DNA from: a virus
Lineage: Duplodnaviria; Heunggongvirae; Uroviricota; Caudoviricetes
Length of the DNA stretch: 13,716 bases
IMG/VR virus record: IMGVR_UViG_2778261086_000003
Span: 1 to 13,716 of that record
Strand: one strand, 5' to 3'
The stretch's first letter is position 1, and every line of letters starts with the position of its first letter. Of the stretch, positions 2,721 through 13,716 are shown piece by piece. The notes under the pieces were generated by a model, which had not been told where the DNA came from, did no database searches, and saw nothing but the letters and a program-made list of their open reading frames with translations. A program made the translations under genes and the position numbers.

Positions 2721-3046
2721 ACAGCTCCCCGTTTATTATTTATCTCCTCAGCCAGCCGCTGTGCTTTCAGGGGATTTCGGGTAACAGAAAGGCCGGGAAA
2801 TACCCAGCCTCGCTTTGTAACGGAGTAGACGAAAGTGATCGCGCCTATGAAACCAAGGACCTGGTTGATGTCGTAACCGGCGAAATCACTACTATCCAGT
2901 CGTTACGCCATACCTCCGATCTTGATACCGGAGAGATGTATGTCTTCCTGTGTAAGGTTGAAGCCTGGGCGATGAATATTGGCTGCCACCTGACTATTCC
3001 ACAGAGCTGCGAGTTTCAGCTGCTGCGCGACAAGCAGGAGGCGTAA
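2672..3046 (+). CDS. hypothetical protein, possibly the 3' remnant of a nin-region gene
   Basis: Reading frame ends at a TAA (3044-3046) that overlaps the ninE ATG. It has no convincing ATG with a ribosome-binding site, and its 5' end overlaps the divergent 63-aa gene. May be a truncated remnant left by a deletion. Confidence 0.3.
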   Translation: MPSQCSFLTQQEMLCAYSSPFIIYLLSQPLCFQGISGNRKAGKYPASLCNGVDESDRAYETKDLVDVVTGEITTIQSLRHTSDLDTGEMYVFLCKVEAWAMNIGCHLTIPQSCEFQLLRDKQEA

Positions 3047-3216
3047 TGGCTACACCGCTTATTCGTGTCATGAACGGACACATCTACAGAGTACCAAATC
3101 GTCGTAAGCGTAAACCTGAGCTGAAGCCATCCGAAATACCAACACTGCTCGGATATACCGCCAGCCTGGTTGATAAAAAATGGTTGCGACTGGCAGCAAG
3201 GAGGAGTCATGGCTGA
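3046..3216 (+). CDS. ninE: NinE protein (56 aa)
   Basis: Hand translation [56 protein letters not shown] matches the NinE family. AGGAGG lies 6 nt upstream; the stop overlaps the ybcO start region. Confidence 0.85.
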   Translation: MATPLIRVMNGHIYRVPNRRKRKPELKPSEIPTLLGYTASLVDKKWLRLAARRSHG

Positions 3217-3499
3217 TTTGAGAAAAGCAGCGCGTGGTCGGGAATGCCAGGTAAGAATCCCTGGCGTATGTAATGGCAACCCTGAAACGTCTGTACTGGC
3301 ACATATCCGGCTGACTGGATTGTGCGGCACCGGTACGAAACCGCCAGACCTGATTGCCACCATTGCATGTTCTGCCTGCCACGACGAAATCGACCGCCGC
3401 ACGCATTTTGTTGACGCTGGATATGCAAAAGAATGCGCGCTGGAAGGTATGGCGAGAACACAGGTTATCTGGCTGAAAGAGGGGGTTATTAAGGCGTGA
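3209..3499 (+). CDS. ybcO: YbcO-family nin-region protein (putative Zn-binding nuclease, 96 aa)
   Basis: [37 protein letters not shown]... with GGAGG at 3201-3205. Conserved Cys/His pattern. Sits in the ninE-ybcO-rusA order seen in DLP12-type prophages. Confidence 0.85.
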
Positions 3500-3858
3500 A
3501 TACCTACAGCATCACATTACCCTGGCCTCCGAGCAATAATCGCTATTACCGCCATAATCGCGGGCGCACGCACGTCAGCGCAGAGGGGCAGGCATACCGC
3601 GATAACGTCGCCCGAATCATTAAAAACGCAATGCTGGATATCGGCCTGGCTATGCCTGTGAAAATCCGCATTGAGTGCCACATGCCGGATCGCCGTCGCC
3701 GTGACCTGGATAATCTGCAAAAAGCCGCTTTTGACGCACTCACTAAAGCAGGTTTCTGGCTGGATGATGCTCAGGTCGTTGATTACCGCGTTGTGAAGAT
3801 GCCTGTTACCAAAGGTGGGAGGCTGGAACTGACCATCACCGAAATGGGGAATGAATGA
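3496..3858 (+). CDS. rusA: RusA Holliday-junction resolvase (120 aa)
   Basis: GTG start overlapping the ybcO stop (GTGA). Sequence [28 protein letters not shown]...[10 protein letters not shown] is recognisable as RusA. Confidence 0.9.
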
Positions 3859-3995
3859 TGTTTGAGTTTTATATGGCAGAACTTCTTCGCCACCGCTGGG
3901 GGCATCTGCGCTTATATCGTTTCCCCGGTTCTGTTTTGACCGATTACCGAATACTGAAGAATTACGCCAAAACCCTGACAGGAGCAGGAGTATGA
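3855..3995 (+). CDS. ylcG: YlcG small protein (46 aa)
   Basis: Hand-translated: [50 protein letters not shown] overlap with the rusA stop. Lies between rusA and Q as in DLP12. Confidence 0.75.
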
Positions 3996-4080
3996 AGTCA
4001 GAGATAACAATCAACTAATACTGTTTTGTTGATTTTTGCTTGTAATTGGCGTTCTGGTCTGATTTTTGTGGAGTAAGTTG

Positions 4081-4458
4081 ATGCGTGATATTCAGATGGT
4101 TCTTGAGCGTTGGGGAGCGTGGGCGGCTAATAATCATGAAGATGTGACCTGGTCGTCCATTGCCGCCGGTTTTAAGGGATTAATTACTTCAAAAGTAAAA
4201 TCTCGCCCGCAATGTTGTGACGATGACGCGATGATTATTTGCGGGTGCATGGCCCGTCTGAAAAAGAACAACAGCGATTTGCATGATTTATTGGTGGACT
4301 ATTATGTCGGCGGCATGACTTTTATGGCGCTTGCACGTAAGCATGGGCGATCTGATTGTTGGGTTGGCAGGATGCTCCAGAAAGCTGAGGGCGTAGTGGA
4401 GGGTATGCTGATGGTGTTGGATCTCCGATTGGAGATGGATGCTGATTGTTCGAAATAA
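4081..4458 (+). CDS. quuD: late-gene antiterminator Q (QuuD-like, 125 aa)
   Basis: ATG at 4081 preceded by GGAG (4070-4073); the ORF-track start at 4066 is a TTG extension. [24 protein letters not shown]... resembles DLP12/phage-82-type Q. Followed by a terminator, as expected for the pR'/tR' arrangement. Confidence 0.8.
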
Positions 4459-4558
4459 TTAAAGGAAAAGTTGCTGTCTGATTGTCATTAGTCTAACATT
4501 TTAAATGTTGGAATCGCAACGTAGTTATTATCATATAACAGCTTGTTTCCTGATTTAG
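4459..4558 (+). promoter_or_regulatory. putative late promoter and Q-utilisation region
   Basis: Position only: in lambdoid phages pR' and qut lie between Q and tR'. Weak -35/-10 candidates (TTGCTG...TAACAT) but no confident match. Confidence 0.3.
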
Positions 4559-4585
4559 CCAGCCTCCCCAAAGGCTGGTTTTTTT
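4559..4585 (+). terminator. rho-independent terminator (tR'-like)
   Basis: Stem CCAGCCT (4559-4565), loop CCCCAA, stem AGGCTGG (4572-4578), then TTTTTTT (4579-4585). Plus-strand only; the reverse read has no U-tract. Confidence 0.65.
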
Positions 4586-4613
4586 CTAATAAGTATTATT
4601 TCGGGTAGGGATT

Positions 4614-5138
4614 TTATTGTTTAACCCATAATAATTCATTGACATTGAATCCCAACTTTTGAGCGGTTCGCACATAGTCTGCTTTTACTTTATCTGGAAT
4701 AGTTGGGGTCCTTGCCAGAATCCATAGGTATTCTCTGTTCGGACCACTGACAAGAGCATACTTATACTCATCATCCAGTTTGATTACATTATAGCCACCA
4801 TAGAAGGGGCCAAAAAACGAAACCTTCAATGCTGCAGTTTTAGTATCTCCAGTAAAGTATGCTTTACCTTCGCTCTCGCTCCATTTATTTTTCGTTGGAT
4901 CGTATCCACGGTTAAGTACACGAATCCCTCCGTCGTTCCGTTTTCCATAAGTAGCGCTGACCTGTTCCAGATCACGTTCGAACCGGTTCTCGAGGCGAGC
5001 TATTTCATACCATTTTCCGAGGTAGCGGTTGGCGTCAAAATTTGTAATCGGCTGCACACCTTTAGGTGGTGTCGGGGCCTTACATGCTATAAGAGTGAAA
5101 GAGAGTGCAATGCCAGTCAACACAGGCCATAACTTCAT
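4614..5138 (-). CDS. Blc-family bacterial lipocalin, outer-membrane lipoprotein (174 aa)
   Basis: Signal peptide with lipobox (LIAC), then lipocalin signatures (NFDANRYLGKWYEIARLENRFE...YLWILARTP). Homologous to but distinct from chromosomal Blc. Lower GC than flanking phage genes and antisense to late transcription. Confidence 0.85.
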   Translation of the reverse strand: MKLWPVLTGIALSFTLIACKAPTPPKGVQPITNFDANRYLGKWYEIARLENRFERDLEQVSATYGKRNDGGIRVLNRGYDPTKNKWSESEGKAYFTGDTKTAALKVSFFGPFYGGYNVIKLDDEYKYALVSGPNREYLWILARTPTIPDKVKADYVRTAQKLGFNVNELLWVKQ

Positions 5139-5330
5139 AATAAATCCTGTACTTTTGATAGTTGAGAGTAAGTATGAAAGATAGATGATTACGACCGATC
5201 ACTTAAAGAACTTTCATACTATATTAGGAATAGTCCATAACAGAAAAATTGTCAGTGATGACGCCAGAAAGGCAATTTATTCCGTGCACTACACAGTTTA
5301 TGTGTTAATGAATTAGTCAAGGGGGAGAAT

Positions 5331-6290
5331 ATGATAAAAAAACCTGTGATTGGAATCAGCGGTTGTTTGGCCGGTTCTGCTGTTCGTTTTGATGGTGGTC
5401 ACAAAAGAGCTGACTTTTTAATGGACAAATTAGTGGAATGGGTAACATTCAGACCAGTATGTCCGGAAATGGCTATAGGGCTGCCAGTTCCGCGTCCTGC
5501 TCTACGTCTTGTGCGCTCGACGCAAGGAAATATACGGATGTGTTTCAGCCACGACCAGAATGAGGATGTGACAGAGAGAATGACAGAGTTTAGTCGTTCT
5601 TATATGGACAAATTAAAGGATGTATCGGGGTTTGTGGTTTGTGCTAAATCTCCCAGCTGTGGCATGGAGCGCGTGCGTGTCTATGATGAAAATGGTAATC
5701 GAGGTCGTAAAGATGGAGTGGGACTATTTACGAGTACTTTGATGGAAAAGTTTTCCTGGCTACCGGTTGAAGAGGATGGGCGATTACATGATCCAGTGCT
5801 TCGTGAGAATTTTGTTGAAAGAGTTTTTGCTTTGCATGAGCTCAATCACCTTTACAAGGAGAAATTATCAAGAAGAGAGTTATTAGCTTTTCATAGTCGT
5901 TATAAGCTTCAGTTGTTGGCGCATAGTCAGGCAGGCTATAAAGATATGGGACCATTTGTGGCTGCAATACACGAGTGGGCGGACCTTGAATCATACTTTG
6001 AGGTGTATCGTGATAATCTGATGGCGATTCTCAGAAAACCAGCATCACGTAAAAATCACACGAATGTGCTGATGCATATACAGGGGTATTTTAGTAATTA
6101 CTTAAGTACACGCCAGCGTAAAGAGTTGAGCGAGGTTATACTTAACTATCGCTTTGGCACATTGCCTCTTCTTGCGCCGTTGACTCTGCTGAAGCATTAT
6201 CTGGGTGAGTATCCTAATGATTACTTGCTTACACAGAATTACTTCGATCCCTATCCGGACGAACTGGCTCTAAGACTGATGGTAAATTAA
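5331..6290 (+). CDS. DUF523-DUF1722 fusion protein (RudS/TudS-like putative thionucleoside desulfidase, 319 aa)
   Basis: N-terminus has the DUF523-type Cys pattern (GISGCLAG, PVCPE, CAKSPSCGM), consistent with a [4Fe-4S] TudS-like fold. The C-terminal ~150 aa resemble the DUF1722 (YbgA-like) domain. GGAG 4 nt before the ATG. Domain call from memory, not HMM-verified. Confidence 0.65.
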   Translation: MIKKPVIGISGCLAGSAVRFDGGHKRADFLMDKLVEWVTFRPVCPEMAIGLPVPRPALRLVRSTQGNIRMCFSHDQNEDVTERMTEFSRSYMDKLKDVSGFVVCAKSPSCGMERVRVYDENGNRGRKDGVGLFTSTLMEKFSWLPVEEDGRLHDPVLRENFVERVFALHELNHLYKEKLSRRELLAFHSRYKLQLLAHSQAGYKDMGPFVAAIHEWADLESYFEVYRDNLMAILRKPASRKNHTNVLMHIQGYFSNYLSTRQRKELSEVILNYRFGTLPLLAPLTLLKHYLGEYPNDYLLTQNYFDPYPDELALRLMVN

Positions 6291-6641
6291 TTGTATGCGA
6301 TATCATCCAAAAGGATGAGTTCCTGCATGCAGGATATTTACAATCGTAAAAACTACACTATGATACCCAGAGTGTCAGTTTGTATAAAAACTCTGTTTAC
6401 GCTGAAGAAACAATTGAGATGCAACTTAAAGTTGGTAAACATGCCAGTCAAAATATATAATATTATGATTCCACGCAGCTATATATAATATAACAGATTG
6501 GTTTAATAATTTGTCTTTGTGAGTTAAATACATAATTTTATACTTGTGATGCAATGAAATTTTCCTTATTGTTGAACTGGCGAATATTGATTTTCCACCT
6601 ATACTTACCTGGTGTAACCCCAATGATATCAGGTGGATAAT

Positions 6642-7373
6642 ATGCCATACATATGTTCTATCATTTTGGTGTTGAACTCGTTTGATGTCCGAATTGGTAA
6701 AGAAGATATTTTGTTTAAAAAAGGAAGTGCTGTTCTCATTGATTACAATTTAAAAGATTTTTTTTCATCAAATATAGATCATGTAATGATCGTAGATGTT
6801 GAAGAGAAAACAGTTAATGATTTCTTTAAAAGCAACACACTCTCACCTTTTTCTGTAAGAAGGTTTTATCCGGCATACTTGATGGTGGAATGTGAAGATT
6901 TTTCATTGTTAAAGAACTTGATTGCATGCTTGAATTGTGATGGCAGAACTGTGGATTTTGTTAGAAATCAAATATCACTTGCATGTCTTGCTATCTTATC
7001 TTCAGAGAAAATAGTGCAAAGTTTTTTATTTGGATGTCTTAATAGTTTAGGAAGTAAAGTTAAGGCTATTATTCACACGGATATATCTGCAGCATGGAGA
7101 CTTTGTGATATATCTTCAAGACTGTATCTGAGTGAAAGTCTGTTAAAAAGAAAATTAAAGCACGAAGGCTTATCATTTAGTAAGTTAATTCTTGAAGAGC
7201 GAATGGTGATGGCGGAAAGGTTATTAAGCTACAATTTATATTCTGTTGGAAAAGTTGCTGAGATATGCGGTTATGAAAACACGTCATATTTTGTAAGTGT
7301 TTTCAGAAGATATTTTGGTGTTCCTCCCCATCAATATTCATCAAGATTTTTTTTAGAAAAAGACATGATGTAA
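6642..7373 (+). CDS. AraC/XylS-family transcriptional regulator (243 aa)
   Basis: C-terminal AraC-type HTH region (LLKRKLKHEGLSFSKLILEERMVMAERLL...VGKVAEICGYENTSYFVSVFRRYFGVPPHQY). ATG at 6642 with AGGTGG 5 nt upstream; the ORF-track start at 6633 is a GTG extension. Very AT-rich gene and leader. Confidence 0.75.
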   Translation: MPYICSIILVLNSFDVRIGKEDILFKKGSAVLIDYNLKDFFSSNIDHVMIVDVEEKTVNDFFKSNTLSPFSVRRFYPAYLMVECEDFSLLKNLIACLNCDGRTVDFVRNQISLACLAILSSEKIVQSFLFGCLNSLGSKVKAIIHTDISAAWRLCDISSRLYLSESLLKRKLKHEGLSFSKLILEERMVMAERLLSYNLYSVGKVAEICGYENTSYFVSVFRRYFGVPPHQYSSRFFLEKDMM

Positions 7374-7434
7374 CGTGATGCGTTTTAATGATTTTGTAAT
7401 TTTCGTATTTGATAATTGTATGATGCTTTCAGCT

Positions 7435-7466
7435 ACGCCAGAATAATCGCTGGCGTTTTTCTTTTT
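7435..7466 (+). terminator. rho-independent terminator downstream of the AraC gene
   Basis: Stem CGCCAG (7436-7441), loop AATAATCG, stem CTGGCG (7450-7455), then TTTTTCTTTTT. Confidence 0.55.
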
Positions 7467-7561
7467 GAATAGATGTTCAAGCCTTACGCTAATGTAACTT
7501 CTATACCTTTCCTCTTCGTTCCGAACCGTGTACACCATCCGTTATTTGCGGAGGTGAGGCT

Positions 7562-7777
7562 ATGAAATCTATGGATAAGTTAACAACGGGCATTGCCTAC
7601 GGTACCTCCGCAGGCAGTGCTGGCTACTGGTTTTTACAGCTGCTCGATAAAGTCACGCCCTCACAGTGGGCAGCAATAGGTGTATTGGGTAGTCTGGTAT
7701 TTGGCCTGCTGACGTACCTGACAAACCTTTATTTCAAGATTAAAGAAGATAAGCGCAAGGCTGCGAGAGGTGAATAA
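7562..7777 (+). CDS. essD: class II holin (phage 21 S21-like pinholin, 71 aa)
   Basis: [26 protein letters not shown]...; two transmembrane segments; dual-start motif Met1-Lys-Ser-Met4. GGAGGTGAGG ribosome-binding site. Stop overlaps the endolysin ATG (TAATG). Symbol follows DLP12 naming. Confidence 0.85.
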
Positions 7778-8274
7778 TGCCTCCATCATTACGAAAAGCC
7801 GTTGCTGCGGCTATTGGTGGCGGGGCTATTGCTATAGCATCTGTGTTAATCACTGGCCCAAGTGGTAACGATGGTCTGGAAGGCGTCAGCTACATACCAT
7901 ATAAAGATATCGTTGGTGTATGGACTGTATGTTACGGGCATACCGGAAAAGACATTATGCTCGGTAAAACGTATACCGAAGCAGAATGCAAAGCCCTCCT
8001 GAATAAAGACCTTGCCACTGTCGCCAGACAAATTAACCCGTACATCAAAGTCGATATACCGGAAACAACGCGCGGCGCTCTTTACTCGTTCGTTTACAAC
8101 GTTGGTGCTGGAAATTTCAGAACATCGACGCTTCTTCGCAAAATAAACCAGGGCGATATCAAAGGCGCATGTGATCAGCTACGGCGCTGGACATACGCTG
8201 GCGGTAAGCAATGGAAAGGGCTGATGACTCGCCGTGAGATTGAGCGTGAAGTCTGTTTGTGGGGGCAACAATGA
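7777..8274 (+). CDS. rrrD: SAR endolysin (phage 21 R21-like lysozyme, 165 aa)
   Basis: N-terminal Gly/Ala-rich weakly hydrophobic SAR segment ([20 protein letters not shown]), then a T4-lysozyme-like catalytic core. Stop overlaps the next ATG (ATGA). Symbol follows DLP12 naming. Confidence 0.9.
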
Positions 8275-8503
8275 GTAGAGTAACCGCGATTATGGTTCGA
8301 AATGGGATGTTATCCGTGAACGTGTGCTCAAGCGTGACAAAGGACTGTGTCAGTTATGTCTGCGTGGTGGTGTGGTGCGTGAGGCGAAAACCGTTGACCA
8401 CATCATCCCTAAAGCACATGGCGGCACTGATGCCGACAGCAATCTGCAGAGCCTGTGCTGGCCGTGTCATAAGGCGAAGACGGCCCGTGAACGGCTGAAG
8501 TAA
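8271..8503 (+). pseudogene. Rz (spanin) start fused to the 3' fragment of an HNH endonuclease gene
   Basis: ATG at 8271 encodes MSRVTAI, identical to the first seven residues of lambda-type Rz, then diverges. A different frame (from ~8279, after an in-frame TAG at 8276-8278, to TAA 8501-8503) encodes SNRDYGSKWDVIRERVLKRDKGLCQLC...DHIIPKAHGGTDADSNLQSLCWPCHKAKTARERLK, an HNH C-terminus with no start codon. Confidence 0.6.
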
Positions 8504-8628
8504 GAACCAGTTCCCACTGCCAGAGGGGAGGGGCGGGTCAAATCCCTGTGACCTGACGTCTTCCGGACTGCCCGCCCCATCGTTTTTTTATACCCGCGAA
8601 AAATGAAATTTAACCAGGAGTGCCGCAT
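8504..8628. other. putative cos / packaging-site region
   Basis: Non-coding, GC-rich, with an imperfect inverted repeat (GGGGCGGG ... CCCGCCCC) and a T-tract, located between the HNH fragment and the small terminase gene, the usual cos position in HK97-like modules. Cleavage site not identifiable by eye. Confidence 0.3.
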
Positions 8629-9123
8629 ATGGCTGGAACGGCGGGGCGTTCCGGGCGTCGCCCCAAGCCAACGGCGCGCAAGGCGCTGGCCGGAAACCCC
8701 GGCAAGCGAGCCCTGAACAAAGATGAACCTGTTTTTACGCCCATCAAAGGTGTTGAGCCACCGGAGTGGTTCGCTGAAGAAGATCTCCCTCTCGCCACGA
8801 TCATGTGGCAACTGACAACCAAAGAACTCTGCGGTCAGGGCCTGCTGTGCGTGACTGACCTCGCGGTGCTTGAGCGGTGGTGCGTGGCCTATGAGTTCTG
8901 GCGACGTGCCGTGAAAAATATTGCCAGACAGGGCAACACCATCACCGGTGCAATGGGCGGCATGGTCAAAAATCCGGAGCTGACCGCCAAAAAAGAACAG
9001 GAGTCCGAGATGAGCAGCACGGGGGCAATGCTCGGACTCGACCCCAGCAGCCGTCAGCGTCTGATTGGCCTGGCGGGGCAGAAGAAAACCACTAACCCGT
9101 TTCTGAAAATCATCGAATCATGA
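8629..9123 (+). CDS. terminase small subunit (P27/HK97 gp1-like, 164 aa)
   Basis: ATG at 8629 with AGGAG 9 nt upstream; the ORF-track start at 8620 is a GTG extension. Basic N-terminus ([27 protein letters not shown]). Stop overlaps the large terminase ATG (ATGA). Confidence 0.8.
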
Positions 9124-9938
9124 GCCGGAAATCTTACCCCAACGTAAATGCTGCCAATCAGTATGCCCGGGATGTCGTGCGCGGAAAGATTGTGGCCTGC
9201 CAGTTTGTGATTCAGGCCTGCCAGCGCCATCTTGATGACCTGATGGAGGAAAAAAGTAAGTCGTTTCGTTACCGCTTCGACAAGGACCTGGCTGAACGGG
9301 CCGCGAAATTTATTCAGCTGTTGCCGCACACCAAGGGTGAGTGGGCATTTAAGAGGATGCCCATCACGCTGGAGCCGTGGCAGCTCTTTGTGATCTGCTG
9401 CGCGTTTGGCTGGGTCAATAAAGGCTCCCGGCTGCGCCGCTTCTGTGAGGTGTATACCGAAATCCCCCGTAAGAACGGCAAATCGGCAATCTCTGCCGGT
9501 GTCGCCCTGTATTGTTTTGCCTGTGATAACGAGTTTGGCGCGGAAGTGTATTCCGGTGCCACGACAGAGAAACAGGCGTGGGAAGTCTTTCGCCCGGCGC
9601 GACTGATGTGTAAACGCACACCCATGCTGACGGAAGCGTTCGGGATTGAGGTTAACGCCTCAAACATGAACCGTCCGGAGGATGGCGCGCGGTTTGAACC
9701 GCTGATCGGCAACCCCGGTGATGGTTCATCACCCCACTGTGCGGTGGTGGATGAATATCACGAGCACGCCACCGATGCGCTTTATACCACGATGCTTACC
9801 GGGATGGGGGCGCGACGTCAGCCACTGATGTGGGCCATCACCACCGCCGGGTACAACATTGAGGGGCCGTGCTACGACAAGCGGCGGGAAGTTATCGAGA
9901 TGCTCAACGGTTCGGTATCAAATCGGATGGCACGGTGA
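9120..9938 (+). pseudogene. terminase large subunit, 3'-truncated (N-terminal ATPase domain only, 272 codons)
   Basis: Walker A motif (EIPRKNGKS) and ATPase-domain sequence present. The reading frame stops after ...EMLNGSV, whereas intact large terminases are roughly twice this length. Downstream sequence switches to unrelated glycine-rich coding. Confidence 0.8.
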
Positions 9939-10600
9939 AAACGGCTCTCGAAAACCTTGGTTTGGGAGATGGCTCGGGGCGTTACAGCAAAACTGTCGTT
10001 TTTTCATCGTCGGGTTCATATACGTGGCCAGCTGACGTAAAACGAATTGACGTTATTCTGACTGCGGGGGGCGGCGGTGGCGGTGGATGTAACGCGGAGA
10101 ACGCAAATCAGACATTTTCAGGGGCTGGCGGAGGAGCCGGAGGTACTGTTTTTGCCACTATTTATGCGACAGACAACGATGCCGGGCCAGGGACCTATAC
10201 AGTGACAATTGGCAGCGGTGGTAGTGGTGCCAATGGGCCAGGGTCTGGAAATAATGGCGGTAATAGTTCGTTCATGACATTAACTGCGCTCGGCGGCCAG
10301 GGTGGGCAATGGGGCGGCGCTACAAATACCGCTGGCGGGCGCGGTGGCTCAGGCTCTGGCGGTTATAAAACTGAACAAGGCGGAGACGGTTCAGACGGAC
10401 AGGCGGGCCAGGCGCTATTAGTAGGCAATGGGGCATCGAGCTATTGGGGTGGCGGCGGCCGCGCTGGGCAACTGAGCGGTAATCCTGGAGTTTGCTCTGG
10501 CTCCGGCGGCGGGGGTGCATACGATAATAGCTATTCACACACGTCAGGACGTGGCGGGCACGGAGCTAATGGCGTGCTGGTAATTCGGGAGTTCATGTAA
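9869..10600 (+). CDS. glycine-rich tail-fibre C-terminal fragment (5' end missing; real start unknown)
   Basis: ORF of 243 codons overlapping the truncated terminase. Sequence ...[26 protein letters not shown]... followed by long GGxGG/GSG runs is characteristic of glycine-rich domains of phage tail fibres. Immediately followed by a tail fibre assembly gene. The first ~15 codons are probably terminase DNA read out of frame. Confidence 0.5.
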
Positions 10601-11005
10601 ATGAATGATATCTATGCAGTTGTTGATAATAACGTTGTTATTAATGTCATTATCTGGGACGGAATTTCTGAATGGAAACCAGAGGCTGGTAATTTAGTTC
10701 CGTTAAACGGCGATGCTGGCATCGGTTGGTCATATTCAGACGGAGTATTTACCGCGCCACCTCCCCCAGAACGCTCTCACAACGCGTTAGTTGCGGAGGC
10801 TGAGCTGCAGAAATCAGCACTACTGACCGTAGCAAATAACACAATAGCACCGCTGCAGGATGCCGTTGATTTGGAAATGGCGACAGACGATGAACAGGCG
10901 TTAATGCTGGCGTGGAAAAAATACAGGGTACTGCTGAACCGTGTTGATACCTCAGCGGCACCCGAAATAGAGTGGCCTACGCAACCGGGGGAGCGGGCCA
11001 GTTGA
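10601..11005 (+). CDS. tail fibre assembly protein (Tfa, 134 aa)
   Basis: C-terminus ...[48 protein letters not shown] matches the conserved Tfa chaperone C-terminal domain. Start is immediately after the upstream stop (TAAATG). Confidence 0.8.
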
Positions 11006-11129
11006 TATCAGGCGCAGCGTCAGCATCAACTGCTGTCACTGCGTCGATGTAGTCGAGTACCGCATTCAGCCGCGTTTTTTCATCATCAGTCAGTTTGCGG
11101 CCTGCACTTCTCCGTTGACATCTTTGTTA
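10977..11129 (-). pseudogene. decayed fragment of a second, convergent tail fibre assembly gene
   Basis: Minus-strand translation gives ...[38 protein letters not shown], sharing the TDDE...VD..AP.I.WP pattern of Tfa C-termini. No start codon in frame; upstream frames contain stops and a frameshift. Its 3' end overlaps the plus-strand tfa by about 28 bp. Confidence 0.4.
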
Positions 11130-11263
11130 TATGGTACAACTGCGCAGAGGCCTGTCTCTTCAATTGTGCCAGTTGAATACTACGATACAACGCTCGGCCT
11201 TCCTGTTTGGTGGAACATAACCACATCCACATGGAAAAGAGCTGATGGTGTAGATGTATAAAC

Positions 11264-11293
11264 TTAAAAAAGGCGCTTTTTAGCGCCTTTAAA
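11264..11293 (-). terminator. rho-independent terminator after the acyltransferase gene
   Basis: Stem AAAGGCGCT (11269-11277), loop TTTT, stem AGCGCCTTT (11282-11290). Read on the minus strand the hairpin is followed by a U-tract, directly after the acyltransferase stop at 11294-11296. Confidence 0.55.
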
Positions 11294-12415
11294 TTAAGAT
11301 ATTCTTTTAGCTATAGAATGACCTATATTTATAAACGGTTTTTCTATTACGTTATATATCAAGTAAGATAGGCTTATAGAAATTATGAGCGATGATATAT
11401 AAATGGCAAACGATCTATGTTCAGTGCTAATACCAATACTGGAACCGTAAAACTCAATAAACTGTATAACAGGAACATGAATCAGATAAAGTGAATATGA
11501 TATTCCACCAAGAGCAACAAGTGATTTATTGAATGAAATAACTTTATTATTTTCTAGAATAATAACACACAAAACAATCAGAAATGCAATATATGCAGAT
11601 CGCGTCAAACCATGTCCTTCAGACACCCCATTAAGCCAAAAAACAAACATCATTCCTAGAATGAAAACGCATAAACTATTTATAATAGAATTATTCATTC
11701 TTTTATGCCTAAGTAAAGGCATTGTCTCTGATATAATCATCCCTAAAATGAAATCATATACTATAGGATTGCCTATGAATCCTATATGAGAAAACACCCC
11801 TGTTTTTGCAATATTGAATGATTGGGCGTCAATTACTACCGAGTGGTTAAAGTAAAGAGAAATAATTGTACTTACAGCAACTAGAAAACATGATGTGATT
11901 AATACCCTGTATTTTATGCTTAATGACATGGATATTGCGAAAATAAAATAAAAATATATCTCGTACCCAAGTGACCATGAAACAATTAGCGTTCCCCACC
12001 CATAATATGGCGGTAGAGTTGAGACATCTAAAGGGATGAGAAGAAATGATTTTATAATATTATTTATAGAAAAAACACCACCCCATGATACGCCTGTGTA
12101 AATATTGTGGTAAAAAAGAAAAACATAAACGCTTAATACTATTGCGTAAACAGGATAAATTCTAAAAAATCTCTTTACAAGAAATGAGGCGGTATTTCTT
12201 AAAGATGTTTTTGTAAAGTTTTTAGTTGAGTATGATATTATAAATCCGCTTATTATAAAAAACAATTCAACTCCAAATATAGCATTCGCGGTTATCCTGT
12301 CCATGAAAGAACCAGGATCTACTTGCCCGAAAAGACCTCTATTATGACCAATAGCTACAGCAAGAGCTGCAATTCCACGAAGCGCTTCTATTCCGTATAA
12401 TTTATCTGTTTTCAT
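11294..12415 (-). CDS. acyltransferase-3 family integral membrane O-acyltransferase (Oac/OafA-like, ~373 aa)
   Basis: Multi-pass hydrophobic protein with the N-terminal acyltransferase-3 signature (LYGIEALRGIAALAVAIGH). Start placed at ATG 12415; the ORF-track start at 12418 is a TTG. Very AT-rich and adjacent to the integrase, as for O-antigen acetylase genes of Shigella phages. Confidence 0.85.
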   Translation of the reverse strand: MKTDKLYGIEALRGIAALAVAIGHNRGLFGQVDPGSFMDRITANAIFGVELFFIISGFIISYSTKNFTKTSLRNTASFLVKRFFRIYPVYAIVLSVYVFLFYHNIYTGVSWGGVFSINNIIKSFLLIPLDVSTLPPYYGWGTLIVSWSLGYEIYFYFIFAISMSLSIKYRVLITSCFLVAVSTIISLYFNHSVVIDAQSFNIAKTGVFSHIGFIGNPIVYDFILGMIISETMPLLRHKRMNNSIINSLCVFILGMMFVFWLNGVSEGHGLTRSAYIAFLIVLCVIILENNKVISFNKSLVALGGISYSLYLIHVPVIQFIEFYGSSIGISTEHRSFAIYISSLIISISLSYLIYNVIEKPFINIGHSIAKRIS

Positions 12416-12558
12416 CAAGTAATATAGTTAGTAGTTGATAAAATTGTTGCTGGAGTCTACCACCAAGAGCTTGGATGATCGACCAGTTAGCATCTCAAGC
12501 TGTATGCGTGAGACAAAAACGAGACACACAAAGCTTTGCAAGTCTTTGCGCTGTTTAC

Positions 12559-13716
12559 CTATGATACCTTCTCCTCAATCCAATCCGCCCACCACTGCAT
12601 CATTTCTCTGCGCTTATCGAGATACTGAGCATGGTTGTAAATCCCGCGCACAGATCCGCCGTTGGCATGTGCCAGTTGCACTTCAATAGCATCAGCAGGC
12701 CATTCGTGCTCGTTCATAATCGTGCTGAATTCATGCCTGAATCCGTGACCGCTTTCCAGACCTTCATAGCCGATTTGTTTGATCACAAGCAGTACAGCGT
12801 TCTCGCAAATTGGCTTCTTCTTATCGTTGCGCCCGGCAAAAACAAACTCTGATACTGGTTTGGTGATTGAACTTAGCGTAGTGAGAAGTTCAACTACCTG
12901 GTCTGACATAGGAACCACATGAATCTTGCGTCCCTTCATCACACTGGCCTCGATGGTGATAATCCTGTTTTCAAAATCGACGTTCTTCCATTGCATGGAA
13001 CGAAGCTCTTTTGTTCTTAGTGCTGTGTAGCGTAAAACTTTGGTCGCAATGAGAGATACGATACTTCCTGAAAATGTTGCAAGTGCTTTGTTGAATGCCG
13101 GGATCTGGTCGGCAGGTAAAAACGGGAAGTTCTTCTTGCGGTATCCTTTCATGGCGTCTGCAAGGTCAGGTGCCGGGTTATATTTAGCCCTTCCGGTGAC
13201 AATAGCGTAACGAAAAACCTCGCCGCATCTTCTGCGGGCTTTGTTGGCTCGCTCCATTGCACCGCGATCTTCAAATCTTCGGATTACTTCCAGCAGTTGC
13301 ATCGGCTCAATATCCTGAATTTCAAGACCGCCGATGATGGGTAAAATGTCGTCATCAAACATTTTGGCAAGTTCAGTTGCATAGCCTACTGACCAGACTT
13401 GCTTCTTGTGCTCGTACCATTCCTTGTAAATCGCACTAAATGAATTGTTGTTAGACGAAGCCTTTTTCGCCTTTACCGGATCGATGCCAACCGAGATGTC
13501 TTTCCTCGCAGTCCATGCCTTATCCCTTGCTTCCTGCAAAGTCATAAGCGGATATTTTCCGACAGTCAGGATTTTCTCCTTACCGTCAATCTTGTAGCGA
13601 AGCTGCCATACCTTTTTCCCTGATACAGGGACATAAAGGTACAGGCCATTACCATCGAGTAGGCGGTATGGTTTTTCTTTCGGCTTTGCTGCTTCAATCT
13701 GCTTAACGGTGAGCAT
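12559..13716 (-). CDS. tyrosine-type site-specific integrase (P4/CPS-53 IntS-like, 385 aa)
   Basis: Full ORF whose ATG is the last three bases of the window. C-terminal catalytic signature (HGFRHEF ... LAHANGGSVRGIYNHAQY). N-terminus MLTVKQIEAAKPKEKPYRLLDGNGLYLYVPV is typical of tRNA-associated P4-family integrases. Attachment site would lie beyond the window. Confidence 0.9.
   Translation of the reverse strand: MLTVKQIEAAKPKEKPYRLLDGNGLYLYVPVSGKKVWQLRYKIDGKEKILTVGKYPLMTLQEARDKAWTARKDISVGIDPVKAKKASSNNNSFSAIYKEWYEHKKQVWSVGYATELAKMFDDDILPIIGGLEIQDIEPMQLLEVIRRFEDRGAMERANKARRRCGEVFRYAIVTGRAKYNPAPDLADAMKGYRKKNFPFLPADQIPAFNKALATFSGSIVSLIATKVLRYTALRTKELRSMQWKNVDFENRIITIEASVMKGRKIHVVPMSDQVVELLTTLSSITKPVSEFVFAGRNDKKKPICENAVLLVIKQIGYEGLESGHGFRHEFSTIMNEHEWPADAIEVQLAHANGGSVRGIYNHAQYLDKRREMMQWWADWIEEKVS

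Follow-up and report, generated by a model that had tools for sequence, protein, structure and literature searches.

The 125-bp interval at positions 8504 to 8628 of the window, the 13,716-nt stretch of DNA from a tailed-phage record (IMG/VR IMGVR_UViG_2778261086_000003) that was analysed here, is very probably the cos site of a temperate phage of the SfV/SfI/phiP27 type. The site and the adjoining small terminase gene (terS) are intact and were most likely orphaned by two deletions, so that the element's own DNA would not be cut or packaged and the site could be used only in trans. The site is an ordinary, previously described element, and the copy in the window is a dead-end remnant. For annotation, the identification fixes the packaging type as cos, with a 10-nt overhang and an HK97-type module, and it provides exact genome ends for a prophage family found in about half of the complete Escherichia coli genomes.

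The reading frame of the HNH endonuclease gene stops with TAA at 8501 to 8503, and terS starts with the ATG at 8629; the interval is therefore exactly the 125-bp intergenic gap. An earlier interpretation of this DNA, made from the letters alone (here the sequence-only reading), had placed a 125-bp non-coding interval between an HNH fragment and a small terminase gene, and the stop and start coordinates agree with that description. Its characterization of the interval as GC rich also holds, with 55.2% GC compared to 45.9% for the whole window. Within the interval, the composition falls into two parts, with 66.7% GC at 8504 to 8578 and 38% at 8579 to 8628. A ribosome-binding site for terS (AGGAG, 8616 to 8620) is located 8 nt upstream of the ATG. 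All 125 positions are identical to positions 7520 to 7644 of L003, an E. coli prophage in which the HNH and large terminase (TerL) genes are intact, and 102 of the 103 positions from 8526 to 8628 are identical to SfV. All features of the cos region and of the packaging module given here are on the plus strand.

Run-off sequencing of SfI virion DNA at both ends has shown a 10-nt gap, 5'-TGCCCGCCCC-3', relative to the prophage, from which the authors concluded cos packaging and excluded headful packaging (PMC3636060). The report (PMC3636060) gives the ends as this gap between run-off reads only, with overhang polarity absent from it. The same 10-mer, the equivalent of cosN, is unchanged in the window at 8569 to 8578; the last bases of the deposited SfI sequence are this 10-mer, and its first base is the equivalent of 8579. 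In phiP27, a misc_feature labelled 'cos-site' covers CGCCCGCCCC, which aligns with the same ten positions. The ends of phi644-2 have been reported as 10-base 3' extensions, 5'-CGCCCGCTTC-3'. In a megablast comparison with phage records, several genome records began or ended within the interval, and those of SfI, phi644-2, phi1026b, and HK97 all break at the position aligned with 8578|8579. The HK97 genome ends 34 nt past GGGGGGGGATCAAATC, and in the window GGGGCGGGTCAAATC is followed by 34 nt up to 8578. The 10-mer matches the cos-family pattern YGCCCGCCCC and is directly preceded by a conserved GAC (8566 to 8568), the A and C of which are at least 90% conserved. The flanking cos blocks (G-box, GAC, T-tract, and CCCGCGAAA) are likewise present in the window and align with those of 22 diverse relatives.

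The coincidence of the SfI end, the phiP27 cos-site feature, and the breaks in the phi644-2, phi1026b, and HK97 records bears out the candidate cos site that had been proposed from the letters alone. Alignment with the cos regions of HK97-like phages, which had been suggested as a check, was positive, and a known cohesive end is present. By its match to the sequenced ends, the top-strand nick would fall at 8578|8579, and the bottom-strand nick would fall at 8568|8569, as judged by phi644-2 and HK97, in which the 3' extensions are 10 nt long. Literature text searches for the 10-mers returned irrelevant matches only.

The deposited ends for the SfI/SfV group are inconsistent because the SfV, SfIV, and SfII records have been linearized at differing points. 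The first base of the SfV (U82619) and SfIV (KC814930) records is the equivalent of 8562, 17 nt left of the SfI end measured at 8579, and the SfII record begins just past the HNH stop, at about 8504. A metagenomic viral contig (IMGVR_UViG_3300013981_000001) breaks off exactly 15 nt before CCGCG. This break corresponds to position +1 of the left ends of SfI, phi644-2, and HK97 in the alignment and suggests that assembly halted at a physical cos end.

By sequence, the site falls within the SfI/SfV/phiP27 cos family; its working would be like that of the HK97 cos, with a small terminase (TerS) of a different sequence family. The cos sites of SfI, SfV, SfII, and SfIV contain the same 10-mer, TGCCCGCCCC, in the same place between HNH and a P27-family terS, and the TerS proteins of this group are about 99% identical to that of the window. 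In contrast to these phages, the element in the window has truncated HNH and TerL genes and has lost its head genes, and it is located at argW/intS rather than at thrW. The Stx2e phage phiP27 (AJ298298, feature 21806 to 21815) shows the same order of G-box (GGGGAGGGGCGGGTCAAATCCCTG), spacer, GGAC, 10-mer, T-tract, and ACCCGCGAAA. Its 10-mer differs from that of the window at the first base only, and the 77-bp matched core is about 82% identical, with differences in the spacer and in the region downstream of CCCGCGAAA. The Burkholderia phages phi644-2, phiE125, and phi1026b have a P27-family TerS about 52% identical to that of the window, the same HNH-cos-terS order, 10-base 3' extensions at the aligned position, and a downstream block (GCCCGCGAAAAATGAAATTTAA) nearly identical to that of the window. 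However, their overhang is CGCCCGCTTC, GAAAAAG takes the place of TCAAATC after their G-box, and their host lineage differs at the phylum level.

HK97 has the same gene order, a homologous HNH protein, a TerL homologous to the full-length protein of L003, and a 10-nt 3' overhang. As in the window, its G-box and TCAAATC stand 34 nt before the end, and both sequences have a C:G step and an A/T tract about 15 to 30 nt downstream, where the HK97 TerS site lies. In contrast, the TerS proteins of the two are not detectably homologous, the HK97 overhang is CGCCGCCAAA, and 319 bp separate the HNH stop from the genome end in HK97. The cos of lambda (cosQ-cosN-cosB) follows the same logic, with a nicking site, a downstream region for the small terminase, and an upstream element. 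However, the cohesive ends of lambda are 12-nt 5' overhangs, its terminase families are not known to be related to those of this phage type, and it has no HNH partner; a search of the window for its cosN sequence, GGGCGGCGACCT, with as many as 2 mismatches tolerated, found nothing.

Similarity searches with TerS, singly and as an alignment, returned only relatives at least 98% identical, and the diversity therefore came from a DNA motif scan of IMG/VR, in which about 60 diverse cos regions were recovered, each preceding a P27-type terS gene; 23 representatives were aligned. Their alignment shows six ordered parts: a G-box, a spacer conserved in length and variable in sequence, GAC, a C-rich 10-mer starting with YGC, a T-tract, and CCCGCGAAA with an A/T-rich run. 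In the window, the G-box with TCAAATC (GGGGAGGGGCGGGTCAAATC) occupies 8525 to 8544 and is conserved in the P27-family phages and HK97. The spacer at 8545 to 8565 contained no conserved sequence or hairpin in the alignment and fold tests. The left genome end opens with 13 nt (8579 to 8591) that include the T7 tract at 8583 to 8589, of which TTT is invariant in the 23 relatives, and are followed at 8592 to 8611 (+14 to +33) by ACCCGCGAAAAATGAAATTT, a putative cosB-like TerS binding site by analogy with HK97. This block includes CCCGCGAAAAA at 8593 to 8603, and by the same analogy TerS may bind at ACCCGCGAAAAAT (8592 to 8604). The conservation of the CCGCGAAA block in loci L175 to L254 is partly by construction, since the block was the search pattern. 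The pattern included this downstream block, and the G-box, GAC, and T-tract were absent from it. Phages found through protein similarity (phiP27, phi644-2, phi1026b, Klebsiella phage ST101-KPC2phi6.3, and Moraxella phage Mcat30) show all the blocks. This alignment provides a testable map of subsites, namely, the G-box, GAC with the 10-mer, the T-tract, and the C:G step with its A-tract; of the subsites in HNH-dependent cos systems, the TerS site of HK97 is the only one dissected so far.

In both the window and HK97 (L009, positions 685 to 699), 34 nt separate the end of the G-box with TCAAATC from the genome end, and the spacing is constant within about 2 nt in the 23 P27-family cos regions, which come from several bacterial groups. 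The G-box lies about 35 to 54 nt upstream of the inferred top-strand nick and is conserved independently of the overhang sequence. It is found in phages of E. coli, Shigella, Klebsiella, Burkholderia, and Moraxella and in many P27-family phages from metagenomes; HK97, the TerS of which is not detectably homologous, has it as well. The composite motif of the G-box, 18 to 26 nt, and GACYGC occurs once in the window (8530 to 8571) and in none of 200 shuffles. We tentatively propose, at a little under even confidence, that the G-box, GGGGAGGGGNGGG(T/A)(C/A)AAATC, is an uncharacterized third subsite of HNH-type cos sites that either signals termination in the manner of cosQ or serves TerL or HNH for docking. 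No description of it was found in the HK97 cos papers that were read. Beyond what we found in print are only the family-wide G-box and a sharp drop in diversity at the cut site.

This drop was observed across 82 loci (L003, L004, and L010 to L089; window positions 8480 to 8640) that had been picked for at least 99% TerS identity, a choice that contributes to it. Polymorphic columns made up 72% of the HNH gene, 86% of 8504 to 8525, 47% of 8526 to 8578, 8% of 8579 to 8628, and 11% of terS. The change falls within about 15 nt of the cohesive end, on its left side. This makes cos a mosaic boundary, as though the left and right arms of the genomes had been swapped by the joining of ends with a common overhang.

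One near-identical cos family in IMG/VR (L180, L186, L187, L193, L197, L201, L203, L215, L222, L229, L240, and L241) has the same flanks with a variable 10-nt overhang, which reads CGCCCACCTA, CGCACACCTA, CGCCAACCTA, CGCCCCCCTA, or CGCCACCCTA. The G-box is also variable in this family (GGGGAGGGGGTGG, ..TAG, and GGGTAGGGGGTGG), with no compensatory pattern. Homopolymer sequencing error is a possible trivial cause of the hypervariability at the two places. In Vibrio phage H8 (L090, 335 to 701), a relative of the P27 family, the HNH gene, annotated as 'holin', stops 6 nt before terS and leaves no intergenic cos region; therefore, the cos of this phage is elsewhere or within coding sequence.

The gene order HNH, cos, terS, terL, and portal is complete in L003 and in a second fuller relative, L004. 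The window retains the HNH remnant, cos, terS, and a terL fragment, and the portal gene is deleted. The full-length TerL of L003 is 26% identical to HK97 gp2 (E value of 7e-30) and matches PF03354 and PF20441; the window copy matches PF03354 only. The HNH remnant is similar to HK97 gp74 over the HNH core (BLASTP E value of 4e-6), and both match PF01844. The TerS of the window, a P27-family protein (PF05119), showed no BLASTP similarity to HK97 gp1, which is itself without a PF05119 match, and no PDB sequence matched it. The term HK97-like thus fits the module, TerL, and the HNH protein but not TerS.

A mechanism for a functional relative can be proposed by analogy with HK97. In HK97, TerS binds at +15 to +29 to a C:G step beside an A-tract, the orientation of which matters little; gp74, the HNH protein, stimulates the cleavage of cos by TerL; and the overhang is 10 nt and 3' protruding. 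If this model can be transferred to the TerS of the window, TerS would bind the C:G step and A/T tract at 8592 to 8611, downstream of the cut, and would position TerL, the nuclease of which would be helped by the HNH protein. Staggered nicking of the top strand at 8578|8579 and of the bottom strand at 8568|8569 would then leave 10-nt 3'-protruding ends, 5'-TGCCCGCCCC-3', with the 3' polarity taken from phi644-2 and HK97. Packaging would presumably proceed rightwards with terS entering first, and at the next cos the upstream G-box (8525 to 8544) would probably contribute to termination.

The window as a whole is a decayed lambdoid prophage at argW (with intS, and yfdC beyond). From 2846 to 13716, it is 98 to 99% identical to E. 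coli prophages, and it carries two deletions compared to the fuller relatives L003 and L004. The first, of 1,352 bp, fuses the beginning of an Rz-type lysis gene with the HNH gene at codon 47 of 116; its junction at 8285 to 8293 coincides with 8-of-9 microhomology, CGCG(A/G)TTAT, between the two genes. What remains of the HNH gene is a 3' remnant (8285 to 8503; residues 47 to 116 of 116) that lacks codons 1 to 46 and the start codon, has an in-frame TAG upstream, and keeps the complete PF01844 core (E value of 5.5e-17, profile positions 1 to 47 of 47). The same deletion created a junk open reading frame of 75 codons, which runs from the ATG of the Rz-type 'lysis protein' at 8271 to 8498 and passes out of frame through the HNH remnant. 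The second deletion, of 4.9 kb, has its junction at 9916, with a 1-nt overlap between terL and an stfP/glycine-rich tail fibre gene. It removed the TerL nuclease domain (PF20441), ymfR, the portal and protease genes, and most tail genes. The 5' fragment of terL (9120 to 9938) retains homology up to 9916 (about 265 residues), including the ATPase domain, and beyond the junction it continues into an out-of-frame tail. Between the two deletions, terS is intact (8629 to 9123; P27 family, 164 amino acids, PF05119), with 100% identical copies in IMG/VR. Neither junction was found in 5,426 complete E. coli genomes or among the GTDB species representatives.

The HNH and large terminase genes had both been described as truncated, which the missing HNH codons and the reduction of TerL to its ATPase domain confirm. 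The further view of the site as a relic also holds: the enzymes are truncated, and the portal, protease, and most other head and tail genes are deleted. As a refinement, the site itself is undegraded. Since the HNH gene has lost its N-terminal codons and TerL its nuclease domain, no cognate nuclease is available in cis and the cos is usable only in trans; because its sequence is identical to that of a relative with intact genes at 125 of 125 positions, it could still be cut in trans.

The interval contains an inverted repeat, GGGGCGGG (8530 to 8537) and CCCGCCCC (8571 to 8578), with a 33-nt gap. Such a repeat had been noticed in the sequence-only reading and called imperfect; the repeat is present, but its 8 bp are perfectly complementary. 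Its right arm lies within the cohesive end and its left arm within the separately conserved G-box. Inverted repeats of 8 bp arose in 7 to 8% of interval shuffles (P of about 0.07 to 0.08), which is not significant alone. In the 23 diverse relatives, the eight proposed pairs were paired in 62.5% of cells compared to a shuffled mean of 66%, with no excess of compensatory changes in the arms, and G-box pairing was about equally good with the overhang of another phage and with that of the same phage (5.10 versus 5.47). A conserved dyad or hairpin in the spacer was also considered, as several relatives appeared palindromic by eye, and was rejected (mean z of -0.2 for the 23 representatives); complementarity of the spacer within a sequence equalled that between sequences. 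The 8-bp repeat is absent from the HK97 cos. The repeat is therefore incidental, a G-rich box and a C-rich overhang that happen to be complementary in the SfV/P27 subgroup, and it is not the functional signature of the cos site.

The same elements could be read as a hairpin in RNA or DNA, such as an intrinsic terminator, at the close of the lysis/HNH transcription unit, given the perfect 8-bp G/C stem, the T7 run beginning 4 nt past the 3' arm, and the pairing of the two arms by RNAfold. However, the loop would be 33 nt long and the T-run does not adjoin the stem, a terminator scan of 8200 to 8900 found none, and the fold energy is ordinary (z = -0.78, with 40 of 200 shuffles folding as well). 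There was no Rfam match, and the repeat frequency in shuffles, the pairing not maintained in the 23 relatives, and the lack of a conserved spacer hairpin also speak against it. This reading is very unlikely and was rejected on the terminator scan, the fold z-score, Rfam, the shuffles, the cross-pairing, and the pair counts. The interval could also be a mere intergenic spacer with the ribosome-binding site of terS, and possibly a promoter, in a phage that packages by the headful (pac) mechanism from a site inside terS. The site at 8616 to 8620 is in keeping with this, and in many pac phages the pac site lies within the small terminase gene. However, no promoter-like site was found in the scan, TerL is of the HK97 type, and conservation of the non-coding sequence on the right side of the cut matches that of the terS coding sequence (8% versus 11% polymorphic columns). 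Moreover, the cohesive ends of phi644-2, phiE125, and HK97, each of 10 nt, fall at the aligned position, and the SfI virion ends are defined and map to the interval, with headful packaging excluded (PMC3636060). A pac-type system, which the sequence-only reading had named as a finding that would count against a cos site, was thus not borne out; for SfI it is refuted by the published end sequencing, and for the window a simple spacer of this kind is highly improbable.

If the interval is accepted as a cos site, it could still have been maintained together with terS as a satellite-like hitchhiking unit, to be packaged by an SfV-type helper. The identity of the cos with that of intact-gene relatives, the full-length TerS with 100% identical copies in other elements, and the intact integrase gene intS (12559 to 13716) are all compatible with such a unit, and helpers are plentiful, as the module is present in 2,888 of 5,426 E. 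coli genomes and in up to 7 copies in some. However, recent common descent would be expected to give the same identity with relatives, and the junctions look accidental (8-of-9 microhomology and an out-of-frame tail). They occur in 0 of the 5,426 complete E. coli genomes and in no GTDB representatives, indicating that the deletion architecture is private and recent and no conserved design. General annotation of the window showed no genes for capsid size redirection, helper interference, or other satellite-type functions. Selection as a hitchhiker is thus hardly credible, and an orphaned cos of the SfV/SfI/phiP27 type is the preferred reading.

This orphan cos lies near integrase and acyltransferase genes, and the terminase of a co-resident relative could in principle cut it. 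If it were cut, chromosome breakage or abortive packaging during helper induction could follow, which is a known class of phenomenon.

Two genes of low GC content lie elsewhere in the window. The first, at 6633 to 7373 on the plus strand (about 30 to 33% GC), encodes an AraC-family regulator most like the YdeO, GadX, and HilD models; with a YbgA-family gene on one side and the holin gene on the other, it resembles a moron insertion in the late region. The second, at 11294 to 12418 on the minus strand (about 28 to 33% GC), had no NCBIfam match and is an acyltransferase-family gene that adjoins intS, which is also on the minus strand. It sits where serotype-converting phages carry O-antigen modification genes.
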